Shown: one piece after another, positions 33,984-54,776 of the stretch | Numbering within the stretch: the first letter of the stretch is position 1 | Layout: every line of letters starts with the position of its first letter | Assembly (NCBI GenBank): GCA_964644245.1 | Contig: CAZXUR010000002.1 | Span: 10,555-74,554, forward strand | DNA: 64,000 nt | From: an uncultured archaeon | Lineage (GTDB): Archaea > Aenigmatarchaeota > Aenigmatarchaeia > CAZXUR01 | Direction: 5' to 3' | Made by a program: the position numbers and the translations under genes | Notes under the pieces: generated by a model | The model's database searches: none | What the model was told of the DNA's origin: nothing | The model's input: only the letters and a program-made list of their open reading frames with translations

Positions 33984-34075
33984 TAGCCCCGAACGGATTC
34001 GAACCGTTGTCTTAAGGTCCAGGGCCTTTTACACAGTCTCGCGACTTAAATGCTTGACCACTACACTACGGGGCT
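33984..34075 (-). tRNA. tRNA, probably tRNA-Gln(CUG), with a 19-nt non-canonical intron (34026-34044)
   Basis: Reverse complement: AGCCCCG TA GTGT AGTGGTCAA GCAT T TAAG [TCGCGAGACTGTGTAAAAG] G CCCTGGA CCTTA AGAC AACGG TTCGAAT CCGTT CGGGGCT A. The acceptor, D and T arms are clean. The A1:U72 pair is typical of archaeal tRNA-Gln. The isotype depends on my hand-derived splice model. Confidence 0.75.
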
Positions 34076-41128: not shown

Positions 41129-41677
41129 TCAAAGTTTAAAAACCTTTCTTACTAAATCCCTTACTGCCCTGTCCGCTTCCTTCTTTGTCATCTCTGTGGT
41201 GTCGATGGCGTAGTCTGCCGAATTGATGAGAGACTTAACCCCAAAACCAATCTCTCTCTTGTCTCTTTCTTCCAGGTCCTTCATCTTGCTGGGGTCGTCA
41301 GACCTTTTCCTCTTATGGAGCCTGCGGAACCTTTCTTTTTTGGAGCAGCGGATGGCAATTACCACGGTCTTAAAGTGTTTGTTGAGCAGTTTCAGCTGTT
41401 TCTTGGACCTCAATCCCTCTATCACAAATAGTTTCTTCTTGGTCTTCACATCCTTCTTCAACTCTGATATGAGCCATGAAACGTGGTCGTCGTGGAAGAA
41501 TCTGGAAACCTTTGCCATGTTCTCTTTTGTGGGCTCCAGGTCCAGTTCTTCAGTGGTCTCCCTTATTATATCACCGGAAGTATACACTCTCAGTCCCAGT
41601 GACTCGCACGCCTTGGCAGCGGAGGTCTTACCAGAGCCGGGCATACCTACAAACACGATAGCAGTTTTTTTGGTCAT
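41129..41677 (-). CDS. P-loop nucleotide kinase-like protein (dephospho-CoA-kinase/UPF0200-like)
   Basis: Walker A VFVGMPGSGKTSAAK. 182 aa. Confidence 0.55.
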   Translation of the reverse strand: MTKKTAIVFVGMPGSGKTSAAKACESLGLRVYTSGDIIRETTEELDLEPTKENMAKVSRFFHDDHVSWLISELKKDVKTKKKLFVIEGLRSKKQLKLLNKHFKTVVIAIRCSKKERFRRLHKRKRSDDPSKMKDLEERDKREIGFGVKSLINSADYAIDTTEMTKKEADRAVRDLVRKVFKL

Positions 41678-42729
41678 GCTTTCACCATCATAGTGTTAAC
41701 CGAGGAGGAAGGTTTGTACACGAAACTCCTTCCCTCTTTTTCTCTCTTCACCAAACCTTCGCTCATCAACCTTTTCAAAAGGTTATTCACGGAGCGTGTA
41801 GCGTGCCCTTTAGACTTGTAACCATGGTCCATTGTTTCTGCTATTTTTGCAGCAGATCCGCTGCCCATGTTTATCAAAGCTTCCAGCACTTCTTTTTGTT
41901 TTGATGGCAGTTCTTCAATCGCTTCCATGGACAATCTGTCCTTCTTCTTGGGTTTTCTTTTTTCTACCTGGAGATTAGTCAACTCTAACGTCTCTTTTTC
42001 GATGGCATTGTTAATTACCTGGTCACATGCCTTCAATATTTCCCTGGGAAATCCACCGGTCTTCATGTAGATATCTTCTATGATTTCAGGTGTGAAGGGC
42101 TCCATACCTTCACCGCCCACATTTCCTATCCTTCTTTTTATCAACTGCTCCGTTTCATCATGCGTTAGTGTGGTTAATTCAATTTTGGTGGTGATTCTTT
42201 TGTAAAATGTCTGGAGTTTGTCTTTGAGAATATCCTCAAAAATGGGCAGACCCGCAAGGACCAAACTCATGTTGTCTATATGGTCATTCAAAACCCTCAG
42301 CCATTCCAGGACTTCTATGGGTGCCTCGTGTGCTTCGTCTACCAGAAGGACGAATTGTCTGTCAGGCATTCTGATAGAGACATATTCAGAGAGATTGTAG
42401 AGATTGGGCTCCCTTCTGAGTATCCTGTCCCATATAGAGGGAGAAAATTCGTCAGAAGTGAAAATGGTGATCAAATCAGCAGGGTTTTTGGGGGGTTTAC
42501 TCAGGTATTTAACATGACAGTTCTGTAGTTGCTTGCTAAGCCATTTGAGGAGGGTGGTCTTTCCCGCTCCAGTGGGCCCTGTAACCAGTGCTACCTTGTG
42601 GAGTTCCTGGAGGTGGTTTTGTATTTTGTCCACTTGTTCTTTATAACCGACAAAAAGAGAGGGTGATATGGTGAGTGTGAACGGGTTGGTGTTCCATCCC
42701 ACTTCCTGGAACCACTCTTTAGTAGCCAT
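41674..42729 (-). CDS. AAA+ ATPase with a C-terminal winged-helix domain (Orc1/Cdc6-, ATPase_2- or ExeA-like)
   Basis: NPFTL...FVGYKEQVDKIQNHL lead-in. Walker A LVTGPTGAGKTTLL. Walker B LLVDEAH. A Lys-rich linker, then the wHTH EVLEALINMGSGSAAKIAETM...LLKRLMSEGLVKRE. Its 5' end faces the box array. Confidence 0.6.
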   Translation of the reverse strand: MATKEWFQEVGWNTNPFTLTISPSLFVGYKEQVDKIQNHLQELHKVALVTGPTGAGKTTLLKWLSKQLQNCHVKYLSKPPKNPADLITIFTSDEFSPSIWDRILRREPNLYNLSEYVSIRMPDRQFVLLVDEAHEAPIEVLEWLRVLNDHIDNMSLVLAGLPIFEDILKDKLQTFYKRITTKIELTTLTHDETEQLIKRRIGNVGGEGMEPFTPEIIEDIYMKTGGFPREILKACDQVINNAIEKETLELTNLQVEKRKPKKKDRLSMEAIEELPSKQKEVLEALINMGSGSAAKIAETMDHGYKSKGHATRSVNNLLKRLMSEGLVKREKEGRSFVYKPSSSVNTMMVKA

Positions 42730-42750
42730 AAATCATCATATTCTATATTG

Positions 42751-43256
42751 GTCCGGATGTTTAAATAGTTTCACGTCCGGATGTGAAGTTCACATAGTAA
42801 ATGTGAAAGTAATGTGAAGTTCACGTGAAAGTAAATCCTCAAATGTCTCAAAAAACCGGGTTTGAGGGGTGTTTTGAAAAAGGCGTGAAGTTCACGTGAA
42901 GGTAATGTGAAGTTCACATAGTAAATGTGAAAGTAATGTGAAGTTCACATTCAGATGTGAAGTTCACGTGAACAAATGTGAAAGTAATGTGAAGTTCACG
43001 TGAAACTCGGAAATGCCTTAAAAGGGGGTTAAATTGAGTATTTGGACGTATATGACGATTTTAAGGGGGCACGAACTTCACACAGAAAAATGAACTTCAC
43101 GTGAAGGTAATGTGAAGTTCACATTCAGATGTGAAGTTCACGTGAACAAATGTGAACTTCACGTGAAGTTCACACGAAAAATGTGAAGTTCACGTGAAGT
43201 TCAGTTATGGGCCATTTGAGGGCCTCTGAGGGGGTGCTAGAAAAAATGAACTTCAC
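42751..43256. repeat. Array of GTGAA-N-TTCAC 11-mers (13 full copies, 3 degenerate copies, 9 half-sites)
   Basis: Full copies start at 42783, 42814, 42885, 42907, 42938, 42957, 42989, 43112, 43131, 43152, 43163, 43183 and 43194. Larger duplicated modules: 42781-42824 = 42905-42948 and 42933-42982 = 43107-43156. No ORF is present. Confidence 0.9.
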
Positions 43257-43257
43257 A

Positions 43258-43569
43258 TTACGATAATTTCATGATTTTCATGATTTCTATTAGTTTTTTG
43301 ATGGTTATTCCCTTCTCCAAGTTCTTTACCACCAAAGGCTTCAACTTTATCAATCTCACACCAAAGTAGCGCCCGTCCTCCATGTATCCCACGTTATCCA
43401 CGGCTGAGCTCAATACCTTGTCTATATAGTAAGAAACGGTGGAAACCGGTAGTTTTGCCTCTCTGGCCAGTCTTCTGAGCCACAAACCATCCGGATATTC
43501 GTACAATACGCGTATGATCTTGCTCGCCTTCCGTATATCAGGGCCTTTGGGCCTGCCAACCTTTGCCAT
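43258..43569 (-). CDS. Small winged-helix DNA-binding protein
   Basis: VLYEYPDGLWLRRLAREAKLPVSTVSYYIDKV, a paralogue of 61088-61372. I prefer the ATG at 43569. Its stop lies 2 nt from the last box of the array. Confidence 0.55.
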   Translation of the reverse strand: MAKVGRPKGPDIRKASKIIRVLYEYPDGLWLRRLAREAKLPVSTVSYYIDKVLSSAVDNVGYMEDGRYFGVRLIKLKPLVVKNLEKGITIKKLIEIMKIMKLS

Positions 43570-43575
43570 TATCAC

Positions 43576-43919
43576 TCACAGTTAGTTTTTTGAACACTGT
43601 TCAATATATATTTTTCTATACTCTAAACGTCCCTTTTCACGGTGTAACTAACATCATTTCAATCTTTTGAAGGTCCAAAAATGCTTAAATTTTCCTTTAT
43701 TTTTATATAAACAGTTAAATCCACGTATAAGTAGTTTAAATTTGATATAAATATAGATATAGTCACAAAAATGTTATTTATAACTCTTTTAACTTATTTA
43801 TGTCTTTTTTAGAACTTTAAATTCTTTTAGAAGTGTTTTTAGTGTTTTAGGTTGAAAAAATGGAAAAAAGTAAAACTCTCAAAAAACAATCTTTTTATTT
43901 TTAAAAGATATATATAACT
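43576..43919. other. 344-bp strongly AT-rich ORF-free spacer (divergent promoter region / candidate unwinding element)
   Basis: Runs such as TTTTATATAAAC, AAATTTGATATAAATATAGATATAG and TTTTTATTTTTAAAAGATATATATAAC. No ORF of 60 aa or more. Confidence 0.5.
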
Positions 43920-44453
43920 ATGCGATGTTTTCTCGCTGTGGACGTGCCCGAAGAACTCAGGAAGAAGTTCATGGACGTACAAAGAACTTTTTCCGGGGTG
44001 TGCAGGGCAAAATTTGTTGAGCCTGAGAACCTTCATATAACACTGAAATTCTTCGGAGACGTGGATGAGGACAAAGTAAAGGAGATAATCGAAGAAATAG
44101 CCAAATTCAACGACGAAACCCCGGTAAAAGTGCGTTTTACGCGTATAGGTGGGTTCCCAAGCAACACCTATGTGAAAGTTTTGTGGATAGGGGTTGCCGG
44201 TTTGGAAGAATTGCAGGAAAAGCTGTCAAAAGCCGCAGAAAGCCTTGGTTTCCCCACTAAAAGGAAGGAAAAGCCCCATTTGACCATAGGCAGGGTAAAG
44301 TCAGTTTCCTCTAAAAAAGACTTCTTGGAGAAGATGGACCAAAAAGGCCCTTTTGGTGAGATGACTGTAAAAAATATTAAACTTAAGAAAAGTGACCTCA
44401 CAAAACAAGGTCCTGTTTACGAGGATTTAAAAGTATTTGAACTGGGTGGTTGA
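43920..44453 (+). CDS. RNA 2',3'-cyclic phosphodiesterase (LigT/ThpR, 2H family)
   Basis: Two H-x-T/S motifs: HITLKFFG and HLTIGRV. 177 aa. Confidence 0.85.
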   Translation: MRCFLAVDVPEELRKKFMDVQRTFSGVCRAKFVEPENLHITLKFFGDVDEDKVKEIIEEIAKFNDETPVKVRFTRIGGFPSNTYVKVLWIGVAGLEELQEKLSKAAESLGFPTKRKEKPHLTIGRVKSVSSKKDFLEKMDQKGPFGEMTVKNIKLKKSDLTKQGPVYEDLKVFELGG

Positions 44454-47593: not shown

Positions 47594-47690
47594 ACCCGGT
47601 TATTTCTTATGGAAAGGTTTTTCATTCGGATGAAAAAGAATGACTTAACACTATAACACTGTTATGTAAATATTTTATTATTATTATACC

Positions 47691-47768
47691 TTTCCACCTG
47701 AAATCATGGGGTGGTGGGTATGTTTCTTCTGGAATATATATTCAAAAGAATAATTTCCAGTAGAAGAA
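47691..47768. promoter_or_regulatory. ORB-like boxes upstream of orc1/cdc6
   Basis: TTTCCACCTGAAATCATGGGGTGGTGGG (47691-47718) is a dyad-like core plus a G-string. An inverted pair TTTCTTCTGGAA (47723-47734) / TTCCAGTAGAAGAA (47755-47768) flanks an AT stretch. Confidence 0.45.
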
Positions 47769-47772
47769 TCCT

Positions 47773-47781
47773 TATATATTA
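47773..47781 (+). promoter_or_regulatory. TATA box of orc1/cdc6
   Basis: TTATATATT lies 30-38 nt upstream of the ATG at 47811, consistent with a near-leaderless transcript. Confidence 0.4.
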
Positions 47782-47810
47782 TTGAGGTATAAGGGAAATG
47801 GGGATGGTTA

Positions 47811-49007
47811 ATGCAGGAATCACTGGACCAAATGTTCGACTCTTATATTAATCAGGAGTCGTTGTTCAAGAACAAGGTGGTGTTTGCCAATTATTATAAA
47901 CCGGATGACATCATGCACCGGGGTGAAGAGATAAACCAGTTGGGTTCCATACTGGCTCCTAGCCTCAAGGGGAATATTCCCAGCAACATACTTATATTCG
48001 GGACCGTGGGAACCGGTAAGACGTTGGTGGTGAGGCACGTGCTCGACAAGCTCTCCAAAGCTGCTGCCAAGGCCAAGAGTCCTATAAACATGATTTACAT
48101 CAACTGTAAGATGAAGAAGGTATCTGACACAGAGTACAGGCTGGTTTCACAAATACTGAGAAAGATGGGACTCGACGTCCCTGACACCGGACTTCCAACC
48201 AACGTTCTCTACCAAAGACTGTTCGAGAAACTGGAAGAAACCAAAGTTACCCTGCTCATACTTGACGAAATAGATGCGTTGGTGGAAAAGGTGGGTGATG
48301 GTATATTGTACAACCTGACTAGAATAAACAGTGACCTGAAAAAAGGGAAGGTGGGAATGATAGGGATAACCAACGACCTGTCTTTCACTGACCTGCTCGA
48401 CCCTCGTGTGAAGTCCTCACTCTCAGAGGAAGAACTGATATTTTCTCCATACAATGCTTTGCACCTGAAGAACATACTCAAGGAAAGGGTCAAGGAAGGC
48501 ATGGAAAAAGGAGCTTTGAGTGATGCGGTGATAACCAAGTGTGCGGCCTTGGCTGCGCAGGAGCACGGTGATGCGCGCAGAGCCCTGGACCTCCTCAGGG
48601 TTGCGGGTGAAATAGCTGAGAGGAAGAATGAGAAGAAAATACTGGAGAGGCATGTCGACATGGCAGAGACCAAACTGGATTTGGACAGGGTCACGGAAAC
48701 GGTCAAGACCCAGCCCAAACAATCTCAGGCAGTCCTCCTCTCCATAATAGAGATTTCCAAGAAAGACAAGGAAATCACCACAGGCGACATATTTGAGGTT
48801 TATAAAAACACTTGTGAAAAGAATGGTCTCAAGGTTTTGACTCAGAGAAGGGTGTCGGACCTCATCTCAGAGTTGGATATGTTGGGAATCATAACCACCA
48901 CCGTAGTCTCCAGGGGGAGGTACGGAAGGTCCAGAGAGATAAAACTGGCAATCGGAGAGACAGCACTCAACAAGTTGAAGGATATATTATACAAGAATTT
49001 TGAGTAG
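47811..49007 (+). CDS. cdc6: Orc1/Cdc6 replication initiator
   Basis: 398 aa. Walker A FGTVGTGKT, Walker B LILDEIDAL, sensor region GDARRALDLLR, and a C-terminal winged helix. Confidence 0.9.
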   Translation: MQESLDQMFDSYINQESLFKNKVVFANYYKPDDIMHRGEEINQLGSILAPSLKGNIPSNILIFGTVGTGKTLVVRHVLDKLSKAAAKAKSPINMIYINCKMKKVSDTEYRLVSQILRKMGLDVPDTGLPTNVLYQRLFEKLEETKVTLLILDEIDALVEKVGDGILYNLTRINSDLKKGKVGMIGITNDLSFTDLLDPRVKSSLSEEELIFSPYNALHLKNILKERVKEGMEKGALSDAVITKCAALAAQEHGDARRALDLLRVAGEIAERKNEKKILERHVDMAETKLDLDRVTETVKTQPKQSQAVLLSIIEISKKDKEITTGDIFEVYKNTCEKNGLKVLTQRRVSDLISELDMLGIITTTVVSRGRYGRSREIKLAIGETALNKLKDILYKNFE

Positions 49008-52710: not shown

Positions 52711-53324
52711 TTCCGCACCGCCTTTATCACCATGTCCCTCTTGTCCTTTGTTGCGAAACCAACTCGGTTGTGAAACTTGGAGACCCTTCTCTTACCTTCT
52801 ATATCCAAACACCAACACTTTCCTGACTTGTATATGTTGCAGTCTACATCCTCCAAAGACAGCAGCGCTTCCACTTCTTTAAGGCCTTTGTGGTTGACTG
52901 ACTTCACACGTACGTTCCTCACTTTCGTTCGTTTTTTTCCGGAGCCCCGAAACCTTACTCTGATGTATCCCTTGACCTCGAAGAACCCGCTCAGGAAACC
53001 CCGTCTGAATCTCTTTGAATCGTAAGCCATGTCTGGTACAGTCCAGTCCCGTGTGCCAAACCTATTGTTCCATTTTTTCAAGAGGCGTTTGACCGTCTTC
53101 TTCCCGTATAACTGGACTGTATACCTAGTTTTTCCTCCTTTCTTTGCTTCACGCACCTTTGGTTCAGTCTGACTTATGTTGGACAGGGAAAGGAGGAACA
53201 CGTCTGCGAATTGTTTGTCGCTTGTCCTGAGTGTGAAAGAGTAGTTGCCGGTCTTTTTCGAGCAACAGACCGAACCGCCCCCACACAGGGAACCACACAC
53301 AAACCCTTCTTCAAGTACAGACAT
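52707..53324 (-). CDS. Free-standing LAGLIDADG-like (degenerate) protein
   Basis: 205 aa. FLSGFFEVKGYI and GFVCGSLCGGGSV resemble two LAGLIDADG-type helices. An acidic residue is present only in the second (E). The protein is very basic. 4-nt convergent overlap with polB. Confidence 0.4.
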   Translation of the reverse strand: MSVLEEGFVCGSLCGGGSVCCSKKTGNYSFTLRTSDKQFADVFLLSLSNISQTEPKVREAKKGGKTRYTVQLYGKKTVKRLLKKWNNRFGTRDWTVPDMAYDSKRFRRGFLSGFFEVKGYIRVRFRGSGKKRTKVRNVRVKSVNHKGLKEVEALLSLEDVDCNIYKSGKCWCLDIEGKRRVSKFHNRVGFATKDKRDMVIKAVRN

Positions 53325-53366
53325 GGTTAATGTTTGACCCGGAGGTTTAAATCCATTACCTATGAA

Positions 53367-53598
53367 GGGGGGTATAGAAAATGTGAATTACGGATGGAAA
53401 AAAGGTGAAATTCACATCCCTTCAGACCCAATTAAAATGAAACTTTAACCCACTTTCGTGAAGTTCATTTTTGGTAAAAAAAGGAAAAAGTTCCACTGGA
53501 AACGGACGGGTGCGCAAAACCCGTTTTTACGGGTCTTGAGGAAATTCACATTTCCCTTCAGAATTCATAGAAAATATTCCTTTGTGTGTGAATTTCAC
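53367..53598. repeat. Second cluster of GTGAA-N-TTCAC-type boxes
   Basis: GTGAAATTCAC at 53405-53415, GTGAAGTTCAT at 53458-53468, GTGAATTTCAC at 53588-53598. Direct repeat GAAATTCACAT..CCCTTCAGA at 53407-53426 and 53541-53562. G-string at 53367-53372. Confidence 0.7.
53490..53503. promoter_or_regulatory. Mini-ORB-like element GTTCCACTGGAAAC
   Basis: The 14-mer is nearly the reverse complement of the archaeal mini-ORB core as I recall it (GTTCCAGTGGAAAC). It is followed by GGACGGGTG. Confidence 0.5.
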
Positions 53599-54776
53599 AG
53601 TGTGAAGTAAGCGATGGTTGGTAATATCAGGACCCCCATCATGAAGGACTTCCTCACACCGATGTTGATGCAGAAAAGCCCTATAGAAAGCGCAATCAGA
53701 CTCAGGAACACGCCGAACAGACCGTTGAATATGTAGACCAGGACAATGACCAGGAAAAAAACCAGGCTACACAGTAAACGATAGTTTATTCTGGTGATGA
53801 TTTTTAGGGAGACTTTGGACAACCACACGGTTGAAAGGGCGGCCAGACCCACTGACAGCAAGGAAACAGCGAGAAGGAGCAGGAGCTCGGGCATCCCCAC
53901 ATCCATCAATCCACCCACCACTATGGCCGCGCCGCTCCTGGGATTTCCTATCAGGAAAAGTGCTAGAAAGGAGAACACTATGTCAGCGGTGTTCACCCCA
54001 CCTATGGACATCAAGAACTCAGTGGTCTTCTTGCTCTTCCCGATTTCCTTTGCGAATACTGTTGCTTGGGCCGAGCCGATTCCGGGAAGCAGACCTGCTA
54101 TAAGCCCTGCTGCGCCCCCAATCAGAGAAGCCTTTCCGAACGATTTTTTATCCACCTTCAGTACTTCTGTCTTCTGTTCAGGCAATACGTTCCTTTGGGA
54201 GAATGATGTGTAGAGGAGTGGCAGGCCGAATAAACCACTGAGGAGCGGGAACAGGGATTTGGATGATATCTCCAACGCCAAATATCCCAAAGCACCAGAC
54301 AGGAACAGCACCATTCCAGAGCCCCACCTGTTCTTGGAGCGGTAGAGCATATATACCACCACTCCCATCAGTAGCAGGTGAGTGTTGGGCCTCAAAATTT
54401 CGTAGACAGGAGGGACCAAGAACATCACCACGGGCAGTGCAAAAAGACAAAAGAGAAAACTTCCCACACCTCCCATGACTGTCAGGACCACAGCCTGATG
54501 CCCCAGACCTTTCAGTAACATCCTGTGTCCGGGCAGGACGGAAAGCGCAGAGTCGCCCTCCGGTGCACCCAGATAAATGGACGGGATAAAGTTCACGAAA
54601 GAGTTGACCACTGAACAGGAAACTATCAGGGAGACCAACGGGATTGTTGGGAGTCCCAACCCGATGCCCAGACTAGAAACCATGATTGCGATGGTGTTAG
54701 GGTGCAGTCCTGGAATCAAGCCGGCTATTACCCCCAAAAAGAAGCCCAGAAGAATGTAGGAAAGTACTAAAAACAT
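53595..54776 (-). CDS. TctA-family (DUF112) permease-like membrane protein
   Basis: 393 aa and polytopic. Motifs GLIPGLHPNT and GLLPGIGSAQATV. Confidence 0.5.
   Translation of the reverse strand: MFLVLSYILLGFFLGVIAGLIPGLHPNTIAIMVSSLGIGLGLPTIPLVSLIVSCSVVNSFVNFIPSIYLGAPEGDSALSVLPGHRMLLKGLGHQAVVLTVMGGVGSFLFCLFALPVVMFLVPPVYEILRPNTHLLLMGVVVYMLYRSKNRWGSGMVLFLSGALGYLALEISSKSLFPLLSGLFGLPLLYTSFSQRNVLPEQKTEVLKVDKKSFGKASLIGGAAGLIAGLLPGIGSAQATVFAKEIGKSKKTTEFLMSIGGVNTADIVFSFLALFLIGNPRSGAAIVVGGLMDVGMPELLLLLAVSLLSVGLAALSTVWLSKVSLKIITRINYRLLCSLVFFLVIVLVYIFNGLFGVFLSLIALSIGLFCINIGVRKSFMMGVLILPTIAYFTL

Follow-up and report, generated by a model that had tools for sequence, protein, structure and literature searches.

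A 64-kb stretch of DNA from an uncultured archaeon of the Aenigmatarchaeota (contig CAZXUR010000002.1, positions 10,555 to 74,554; hereafter the window) carries an array of TTCAC/GTGAA half-sites, set in helical register, upstream of the gene for an AAA+ ATPase. Because the array lies before the same ATPase gene in about 80 species, we conclude that it is a conserved protein-docking platform, near but distinct from the ordinary replication origin. An earlier note on this DNA had proposed a platform for cooperative, same-face binding, and this is borne out by the conservation of array, phasing and linkage to the ATPase gene in these species. Array and ATPase constitute a strongly selected pair of cis-element and protein, undescribed as far as the searched literature shows: neither the box nor the ATPase family in archaea was described in it. 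The organisation and segregation of archaeal chromosomes are largely unknown, above all in DPANN with their tiny genomes, and the locus offers a sharply defined, phylum-wide pair whose DNA signal is one pentamer kept in phase with the helix for as many as about 80 turns.

A helically phased half-site array

Exact copies of the box GTGAANTTCAC start at 42783, 42814, 42885, 42907, 42938, 42957, 42989, 43112, 43131, 43152, 43163 and 43183 of the window. These 12 copies compare with 0.07 from shuffles (0/100 shuffles reach 14), and outside the array the whole window contains only single boxes at 53405 and 53588. The full copies given in the earlier note were recovered except for the one at 43194, which reads GTGAAGTTCAG with one mismatch and is therefore degenerate rather than a full copy. 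Its degenerate copies were found as described, those at 43090 and 43246 with one mismatch and that at 43071 with two, as was every isolated GTGAA half-site that it listed. The palindrome TTCACGTGAA occurs eight times in the window, always within the array, and this count includes both 12-mers GTTCACGTGAAC, which had been noticed as palindromes of abutting boxes. In the window outside the array, half-sites have a density of 2.9/kb.

The phasing is stronger than had been claimed. The 22 GTGAA sites on the plus strand share one 10.25-bp period across 411 bp, unique spacers included (resultant 0.94), and local phasing exceeded that of all 5000 random placements. The array also contains the 44-bp exact duplication reported previously (42781-42824 and 42905-42948), together with a longer pair of copies of 79 bp at 91% (42927-43005 and 43101-43179). 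G-strings (GAGGGG or GGGGG) are found in its unique spacers at 42864-42869, 43024-43028, 43065-43069 and 43228-43234, of which the GGGGG runs at 43024 and 43065 had been seen before.

Phylum-wide conservation of the array

A scan with one genome per species yielded 80 loci with an orthologue of the ATPase (81 with the window), at 40-49% identity; the homologues of the flanking proteins carry the annotation Aenigmarchaeota, one of the DPANN phyla. Complete or near-complete genomes with the locus include CP070809.1 (846 kb), JACPJW010000001.1 (918 kb) and CAVSBQ010000002.1 (1.1 Mb). Absence of the array from relatives had been set beforehand as a refuting check. What was found is the array upstream of the ATPase throughout: the 1 kb before the gene has 9-37 half-sites/kb in 80/80 species versus 1-5/kb elsewhere, with the enrichment limited to roughly -1200 to 0 relative to the gene. 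A single motif family is enriched there, TTCACGTG 194-fold and AACTTCAC 113-fold. Among metagenome contigs with the 21-mer TTCACGTGAACTTCACGTGAA, at least 33 of 41 represent the same locus.

Across these loci, TTCAC is 1.5-2 times commoner than GTGAA on the sense strand of the ATPase gene, and the distances between same-strand TTCAC sites peak at 11, 21-22, 31-32, 42, 52-53 and 63-64 bp. All same-strand sites fit one period over 300-870 bp in 37 of the 64 testable arrays, and the median period is 10.5 bp (interquartile range 10.45-10.55). A frequent layout consists of a TTCAC run in 11-bp steps, followed by TTCACGTGAA and then by a GTGAA run in 10-11-bp steps. The GTGAA-N-TTCAC unit on which the earlier note had built its description is present in the window but outnumbered phylum-wide, with 76 occurrences against 242 pairs of 11-bp TTCAC direct repeats and 182 copies of TTCACGTGAA. 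It is the TTCAC half-site and the palindrome TTCACGTGAA that are conserved as units, rather than GTGAA-N-TTCAC.

But what becomes of the array where there is little room for it? The conserved gene order is LigT - array - ATPase - (kinase) - PRC - RadA - RPA, and in 22 species LigT ends less than 200 bp from the ATPase start, leaving a spacer of about 100-190 bp. The LigT coding sequence of these species has 18.7 half-sites/kb, nearly all in TTCAC orientation, versus 2.9 half-sites/kb in LigT orthologues more than 1.2 kb away (Mann-Whitney p = 2e-8). The position of the array is under selection: half-sites are re-created within the neighbouring coding sequence once the spacer is lost, and the signal is selected strongly enough for that sequence to be rewritten. 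The half-sites within LigT indicate that the element acts at the DNA level and need not be non-coding, and their persistence there makes an RNA gene unlikely. Overprinted coding sequences were noted for LigT in L003 (7365-7910) and 21 other loci and for nrdG in L001 (7212-7931), in each case in a gene that abuts the ATPase gene.

Two other candidate identities were rejected. Rfam at gathering thresholds matched only a tRNA elsewhere in the window, and a permissive scan of 42600-44000 returned sub-threshold hairpin-type microRNA matches that are caused by the palindromes. A mobile or viral source was dropped as well: a search of viral contigs gave no relatives of the ATPase, and the seven viral matches to a 16-mer were single chance matches without local enrichment.

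The ATPase has an Orc1/Cdc6-like fold but is not Orc1/Cdc6 by sequence

The earlier note had recognised an AAA+ ATPase with a C-terminal winged helix, and Pfam agrees, matching AAA_22 at 2e-14 and Penicillinase_R (PF03965) at 4e-8 (34 bits versus a cut-off of 22.6, residues ~277-348). The chain has a Walker A motif GPTGAGKT and a Walker B motif LVDEAHE. In the AlphaFold2 (AF2) model (predicted local distance difference test, pLDDT, 89), an AAA+ domain, a lid and a C-terminal winged helix occur together as in Orc1/Cdc6, and full-length archaeal and eukaryotic Orc1/Cdc6 proteins were the best Foldseek matches, followed by STAND, RuvB, TnsC and MuB. The top matches 1w5t, 1fnn, 2qby and 2v1u span 380-400 aligned columns with E ~1e-12.

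The three-domain fold is Orc1/Cdc6-like, but by sequence the protein is not a member of Orc1/Cdc6. Pfam gave no Cdc6_C or Cdc6_lid match, the score on TIGR02928 was 33 bits (cut-off 181), and hhalign against Aenigmarchaeota Orc1/Cdc6 returned a probability of 8.6%, with an alignment restricted to the AAA+ core. Its strongest sequence relationships are to the ExeA-like TIGR03015 (6e-26, below cut-off), AAA_22 and a MuB-like protein in PHROGs (1e-16), and the nearest relatives of the AAA+ core are DNA-polymerising proteins of the MuB type. The family profile also matches PDB chains of MecI and BlaI. The only links from the sequence to solved structures were matches to P-loop proteins and to the winged helix of MecI/BlaI. 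Judged by sequence, the ATPase joins an AAA+ domain of the ExeA/MuB type to a winged helix of the BlaI/CopY type. Its recognition helix is near-invariant across 32 orthologues (R312, S313, N315, N316), and Walker A, Walker B and candidate arginine residues are invariant among orthologues. K57 belongs to Walker A, and R178 is a candidate arginine finger. A defence system was considered and rejected, as PADLOC gave P-loop-level matches only.

The promoter of the ATPase operon lies inside the array

The 4-bp overlap between the start of the kinase-like gene and the stop of the ATPase gene places both in the same operon. The kinase-like gene is found downstream of the ATPase in 30/80 species, and the PRC-barrel gene is conserved beside the ATPase in 74/80, with Pfam PRC matched in homologous loci. 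In haloarchaea, PRC-barrel proteins function in cell division (bioRxiv 10.1101/2023.03.28.534520). That the operon encodes a member of this class is a hint of a connection with cell division, although the cited paper leaves the role outside haloarchaea open.

The promoter of this operon lies inside the array. Its TATA-like element is abutted by a half-site, and a (T)TTAAATA element recurs within the last ~100 nt before the ATPase in many other loci, beside or between boxes. In about 14 species, the final 150 nt upstream of the gene contain a pair of palindromes spaced 31-35 bp; in the printed sequences of that type they bracket the TATA element, with the downstream palindrome just before the ATG. 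Such a pair around TATA was discarded as a universal layout, because it occurs in about 14/80 species only and is absent from the window itself. With the promoter inside the array and boxes bracketing TATA, feedback on the transcription of the operon is predicted, and we infer that the operon is autoregulated. The window itself has two copies of GTCCGGATG, 24 bp apart (42751-42759 and 42775-42783), on either side of the TATA element of the ATPase. The pair occupies the place of the TTCACGTGAA palindromes of other species and may be a lineage-specific second operator.

A probable canonical origin lies elsewhere

The window contains a true orc1/cdc6 gene, in an operon orc1/cdc6 - Metallophos (DP1-like) - polB. 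Within 160 bp upstream of it are four TTCCA-N3-GAA elements (47604, 47692, 47724 and 47755), and in the whole window this motif recurs only at 53491. The element at 47692-47714 is an origin recognition box (ORB) with G-string, TTCCACCTGAAATCATGGGGTGG, and those at 47604, 47724 and 47755 are inverted mini-ORBs; the palindrome ATAACAnTGTTAT at 47652-47666 and an A+T stretch (80%) complete the site. The same layout of ATAACAnTGTTAT, an A+T-rich stretch and a textbook ORB with a GGGGT G-string is found upstream of orc1 in 5/5 genomes, and the analysis also locates the probable canonical oriC of the phylum.

With a textbook ORB origin upstream of a true orc1/cdc6, the array is not the canonical origin but a separate, origin-proximal element. 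The earlier note had considered the array as an origin, and for the canonical origin this is contradicted by the site in the window and by the orthologous sites in four other genomes. No ORB elements (dyad TTCCA-N3-GGAAA plus 3' GGGGT) were found in the array and, conversely, no TTCACGTGAA in the orc1 loci of the four other genomes or near orc1 in the window. In four genomes with both genes on one contig, orc1 and the ATPase gene are 5, ~10, ~27 and ~28 kb apart. Nor did skew reveal a replication start at the array: over 81 loci there was no clear GC or AT switch, the regression at four-fold sites giving a GC side effect of -0.015 (95% confidence interval -0.034 to 0.002) in what is a weak test. 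Cumulative skew in the window appeared to follow gene orientation. The A+T-rich DNA near the array is the spacer beyond the small helix-turn-helix (HTH) gene, which the earlier note had called AT-rich and which is 78% A+T, and arrays are mostly unidirectional.

Table 1. Features of the array locus and of the canonical origin. Positions are those of the window, except in the row for other genomes.
Feature	Position	Strand	Remarks
Phased TTCAC/GTGAA array	42770..43256	.	38 half-sites; 12 exact GTGAANTTCAC; 8 TTCACGTGAA
Box blocks of the array	42770-42829, 42885-43004, 43071-43204		lone box at 43246-43256
Unique spacers within the array	42830-42884, 43005-43070		
AAA+ ATPase, 351 aa	41674..42729	-	AAA_22 core, lid, C-terminal winged helix; predicted box binder
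Adenylate/cytidylate-kinase-like P-loop protein	41129..41677	-	start overlaps ATPase stop by 4 bp
PRC-barrel protein, 86 aa	40845..41105	-	last gene of the operon
TATA-like element of the ATPase operon promoter, ctATTTAAAca	42760..42768	-	half-site abuts upstream side
Small IclR-like HTH or winged-HTH protein, 103-105 aa	43258..43575	-	3' end abuts array; right flank, as in the earlier note
Spacer, 344 bp, 78% A+T	43576..43919	.	from small HTH gene to divergent LigT gene; both promoters
Palindrome TTGAACACTGTTCAA	43590..43604	.	immediately follows the TATA-like element of the small HTH gene
Probable canonical oriC	47594-47810		upstream of orc1/cdc6; ORB, G-string, A+T stretch, mini-ORBs
orc1/cdc6	47811-49007		
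Probable oriC in other genomes	L138 3493-3750; L139 3741-4000; L140 3742-4000; L141 3676-4000		

Proposed mechanism

The reading that we tentatively prefer, while granting it somewhat less than an even chance, is that the array serves the neighbouring ATPase as its docking platform on the chromosome, combining a same-face filament, control of the operon and a mark close to the origin. The BlaI/CopY-type winged helix of the ATPase would read the TTCA(C) half-site, and pairs of protomers would nucleate on TTCACGTGAA. ATP-dependent contacts between AAA+ domains could then add protomers head-to-tail on TTCAC sites one helical turn apart, giving a filament of several hundred base pairs along one face of the DNA. 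Since the promoter of the ATPase-kinase-PRC-barrel operon is within the array, occupancy would feed back on its own expression, and the complex would mark one constant position, between a few and a few tens of kilobases from the canonical orc1-linked origin. Most likely, the wider role would be the organisation or segregation of the origin region, or cell-cycle control, which is guesswork from position and neighbours.

Which protein binds the boxes? With moderate confidence we regard the ATPase as the binder. Its winged helix is of the CopY/BlaI/MecI type, a family whose established operator TACANNTGTA (PMC7253601) has the same 4-2-4 form as TTCAcgTGAA; its recognition helix is near-invariant, and so is the box; and the small HTH protein that flanks the array on the other side is poorly conserved and has a lineage-variable palindrome of its own immediately after its TATA element. 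That the ATPase forms filaments we likewise infer. Both proteins are small and expressible, so that binding, filaments and nucleotide dependence can be tested in vitro without cultivation.

Several observations weigh against this interpretation. A homologue of the small HTH protein, variable in position and orientation, was detected by profile search in 60/81 loci, so that this protein could itself be the reader of the boxes and is a serious rival. In the clade with overprinted LigT, the sites keep a common phase only weakly over long distances (z < 2.7). The same box also forms small clusters in other intergenic settings (L098, L099, L102/L119, L116 and 53.2-53.7 kb of the window), a pattern equally compatible with an ordinary regulator and its regulon. 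Finally, the proposed cellular role rests on proximity to the origin and on the neighbours PRC barrel, RadA and RPA, and is guesswork.

Alternative explanations

A more far-reaching version, possible but on the unlikely side, is that the locus represents an undescribed chromosome-marking system, in which the ATPase polymerises on the array either as a centromere or origin organiser, a counterpart of ParB-parS, or at an Orc-independent second origin. It is framed on the combination of an ExeA/MuB-type core with a BlaI-type winged helix, a 0.3-0.9-kb array, a strict 10.5-bp register and a position beside the replication origin.

The alternative that the small HTH protein binds the boxes in the manner of ParR or TubR, with the ATPase as partner nucleoside triphosphatase (NTPase) of a three-part partition-like or regulatory cassette, we consider unlikely. 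The order of small DNA-binding gene, iteron array and NTPase gene does recall type II/III partition cassettes (PMC2241845, PMC6009700). The homologue, where present, usually lies 0.5-1.6 kb upstream of the ATPase, and its half-site TGAAC/GTTCA overlaps the GTGAAC/GTTCAC of the array. However, the promoter of the small HTH gene has a different, lineage-variable palindrome ACA-N1-2-TGT (a probable operator of the TTGAACAnTGTTCAA type), while the TTCAC box is invariant. The protein itself is poorly conserved (41% mean column identity) and was not detected in 21/81 loci, some of them on short contigs; in the LigT-adjacent clade its matches are weak only and lie downstream of the PRC gene. An initial tblastn-based statement that the array persists without the small HTH gene was dropped after the profile search gave weak homologues downstream in that clade.

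The array could also be an elaborate operator only, with either protein as a regulator that controls its own operon and a small regulon and has no chromosomal role; this strikes us as quite unlikely. The TATA element has boxes next to it or on both sides, further small clusters are found close to TATA-like elements elsewhere (L102/L119; 53.2-53.7 kb of the window), and Orc1-2 provides a precedent of an Orc1/Cdc6 paralogue that acts purely in transcription regulation (PMC6061795, PMC9738581). Yet 20-40 half-sites in one register over 300-870 bp far exceed the needs of promoter control, and the half-sites are re-created in neighbouring coding sequence after loss of the spacer.

We regard it as improbable that the array is a second, Orc1-independent origin with the ATPase as dedicated initiator, which would oligomerise like DnaA and melt adjacent A+T-rich DNA. 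The initiator-like architecture with its best structural matches in Orc1/Cdc6, the classic initiator-origin layout of a gene with a multi-site array in cis, the A+T-rich spacer nearby, the setting among replication and repair genes and the box cluster beside the primase-helicase gene of the putative mobile element L116 all speak for it. They are opposed by the complete ORB origin beside orc1 in 5/5 genomes of only about 0.8-1.1 Mb, by the 22 species with half-sites inside LigT, whose short spacers leave little space for unwinding, and by the mostly unidirectional arrays, which do not form two inverted sets flanking an A+T-rich core. The skew switch at four-fold sites is not significant over the 81 loci, and the ATPase stands outside Orc1/Cdc6 by sequence.

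A recent, functionless repeat expansion or the remnant of a decayed mobile element, to which the long exact duplications in the window (44 and 50 bp) might have pointed, has practically no chance of being correct, being refuted by the same motif, phasing and position in about 80 species with no more than 40-50% identity between their proteins.

Comparison with known systems

The locus resembles parC/ParR, tubC/TubR and DnaA-oriC but is a member of none, since the defining features of each were looked for and are lacking. At parC of plasmid R1, iterons of ~11 bp, one per turn, form blocks flanking the promoter of the system, and cooperative binding of ParR both represses transcription and builds a nucleoprotein complex (PMC2241845). 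The array likewise consists of phased ~11-bp repeats in blocks and includes the promoter of its operon, and the comparison with R1 parC made in the earlier note holds in this respect. The R1 system, however, lies on a plasmid and combines 10 iterons with a ParR of the ribbon-helix-helix type and the actin-like ParM, whereas the arrays have 20-40 half-sites, are chromosomal and adjoin an AAA+ ATPase with a winged helix of its own. No ParM, TubZ or ParA-type protein was seen among the open reading frames inspected in the window, where the NTPase is AAA+. With tubC/TubR/TubZ the locus shares a cassette of small winged-HTH protein, phased iteron blocks (12 bp in tubC) and NTPase gene (PMC6009700), but here the NTPase is not tubulin-like, and the small protein apparently has a separate operator.

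Similar considerations apply to origins. DnaA at E. coli oriC is likewise an AAA+ protein of the initiator clade, with a DNA-binding domain at its C terminus and turn-spaced sites, and according to Rozgaja et al. 2011 it reportedly fills low-affinity sites one turn apart, extending from strong sites. Box, protein family and domain of life differ, and here a separate canonical origin exists. Archaeal ORB origins share repeated dyads upstream of an AAA+/lid/winged-helix gene, but the box here is TTCACGTGAA rather than TTCCA-N3-GGAAA plus G-string, and the ATPase fails the Orc1/Cdc6 models. An iteron plasmid origin, with 17-22-bp direct iterons and Rep, was not found: the period is 11 bp, there is no Rep, and the synteny is of the chromosomal housekeeping kind.

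As for parS, the 10 bp of the palindrome TTCACGTGAA match the centre of the bacterial consensus, TGTTTCACGTGAAACA, exactly, which may be a coincidence; a full-text literature search with the palindrome sequence returned papers on ParB. In common with parS, the array is near the origin and may be located within coding sequence, but parS sites are isolated 16-mers rather than a phased array, and no ParA-type Walker motif was found in the window.

Among regulators, the CopY/BlaI/MecI family is similar in its DNA-binding domain. The winged helix of the ATPase belongs to the same Pfam family, and its predicted target TTCAcgTGAA has the 4-2-4 palindrome geometry of the family operator TACAnnTGTA (PMC7253601). 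Members of the family are small dimeric repressors of bacteria with one or two operators, whereas in the present protein the domain is joined to an AAA+ ATPase and has before it dozens of half-sites in phase, whose second base is T instead of A. Orc1-2 of Sulfolobales is similar as a DNA-binding regulator with the AAA+/winged-helix architecture of an initiator (PMC6061795, PMC9738581), but it is a bona fide member of Orc1/Cdc6 and binds scattered promoter motifs, unlike the phased array here.

The small HTH protein and its palindrome

HTH_IclR is matched by 21/29 members of the small-HTH family (best 2.5e-6) and HTH_24 by 12, while the AF2 model (pLDDT 50) was too poor for a fold search. An nACA-N1-2-TGTn palindrome of lineage-variable sequence occurs at the same place in many of 45 distinct upstream regions of these winged-HTH genes. 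In the window it is represented by TTGAACACTGTTCAA, which, judging from the motif and its placement, is probably the operator of the small HTH protein itself. TTGAACACTGTTCAA shares the core AACACTGTT with the palindrome of the canonical oriC (47655-47663), which hints that the small HTH protein might bind the origin too; the core has 4 matches in the window versus 1.5 expected.

Box clusters and other elements elsewhere

Outside the ATPase locus, contigs without it (L098, L099/L114, L102/L119 and L117) have ~7-14 half-sites within 1 kb of intergenic DNA. Some of these clusters adjoin TATA-like elements and may be further targets of the box binder. L116, probably a mobile element, has genes for a primase-helicase (AAA_25) and for an HNH nuclease, and just 3' of the helicase gene (1250-1370) it has a cluster of TTCACGTGAA that includes a 29-bp direct repeat; the element may exploit the box-binding protein of its host.

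In the window, 53226-53701 contains 8 TTCAC/GTGAA half-sites in 250 bp beside an ORB-like element. This region includes a 270-bp spacer (53325-53594) that follows a free-standing LAGLIDADG open reading frame downstream of polB. The spacer has a full ORB-like element, GTTCCACTGGAAACGGACGGGTG, at 53490-53512, alternative ACGGGT/ACCCGT hairpins and two copies of GAAATTCACAT(N)CCCTTCAGA, and is without an Rfam match. Finally, the tRNA at 33984-34075 (92 nt; Rfam and ARAGORN), for which ARAGORN left the anticodon undetermined, may be an intron-containing archaeal tRNA.

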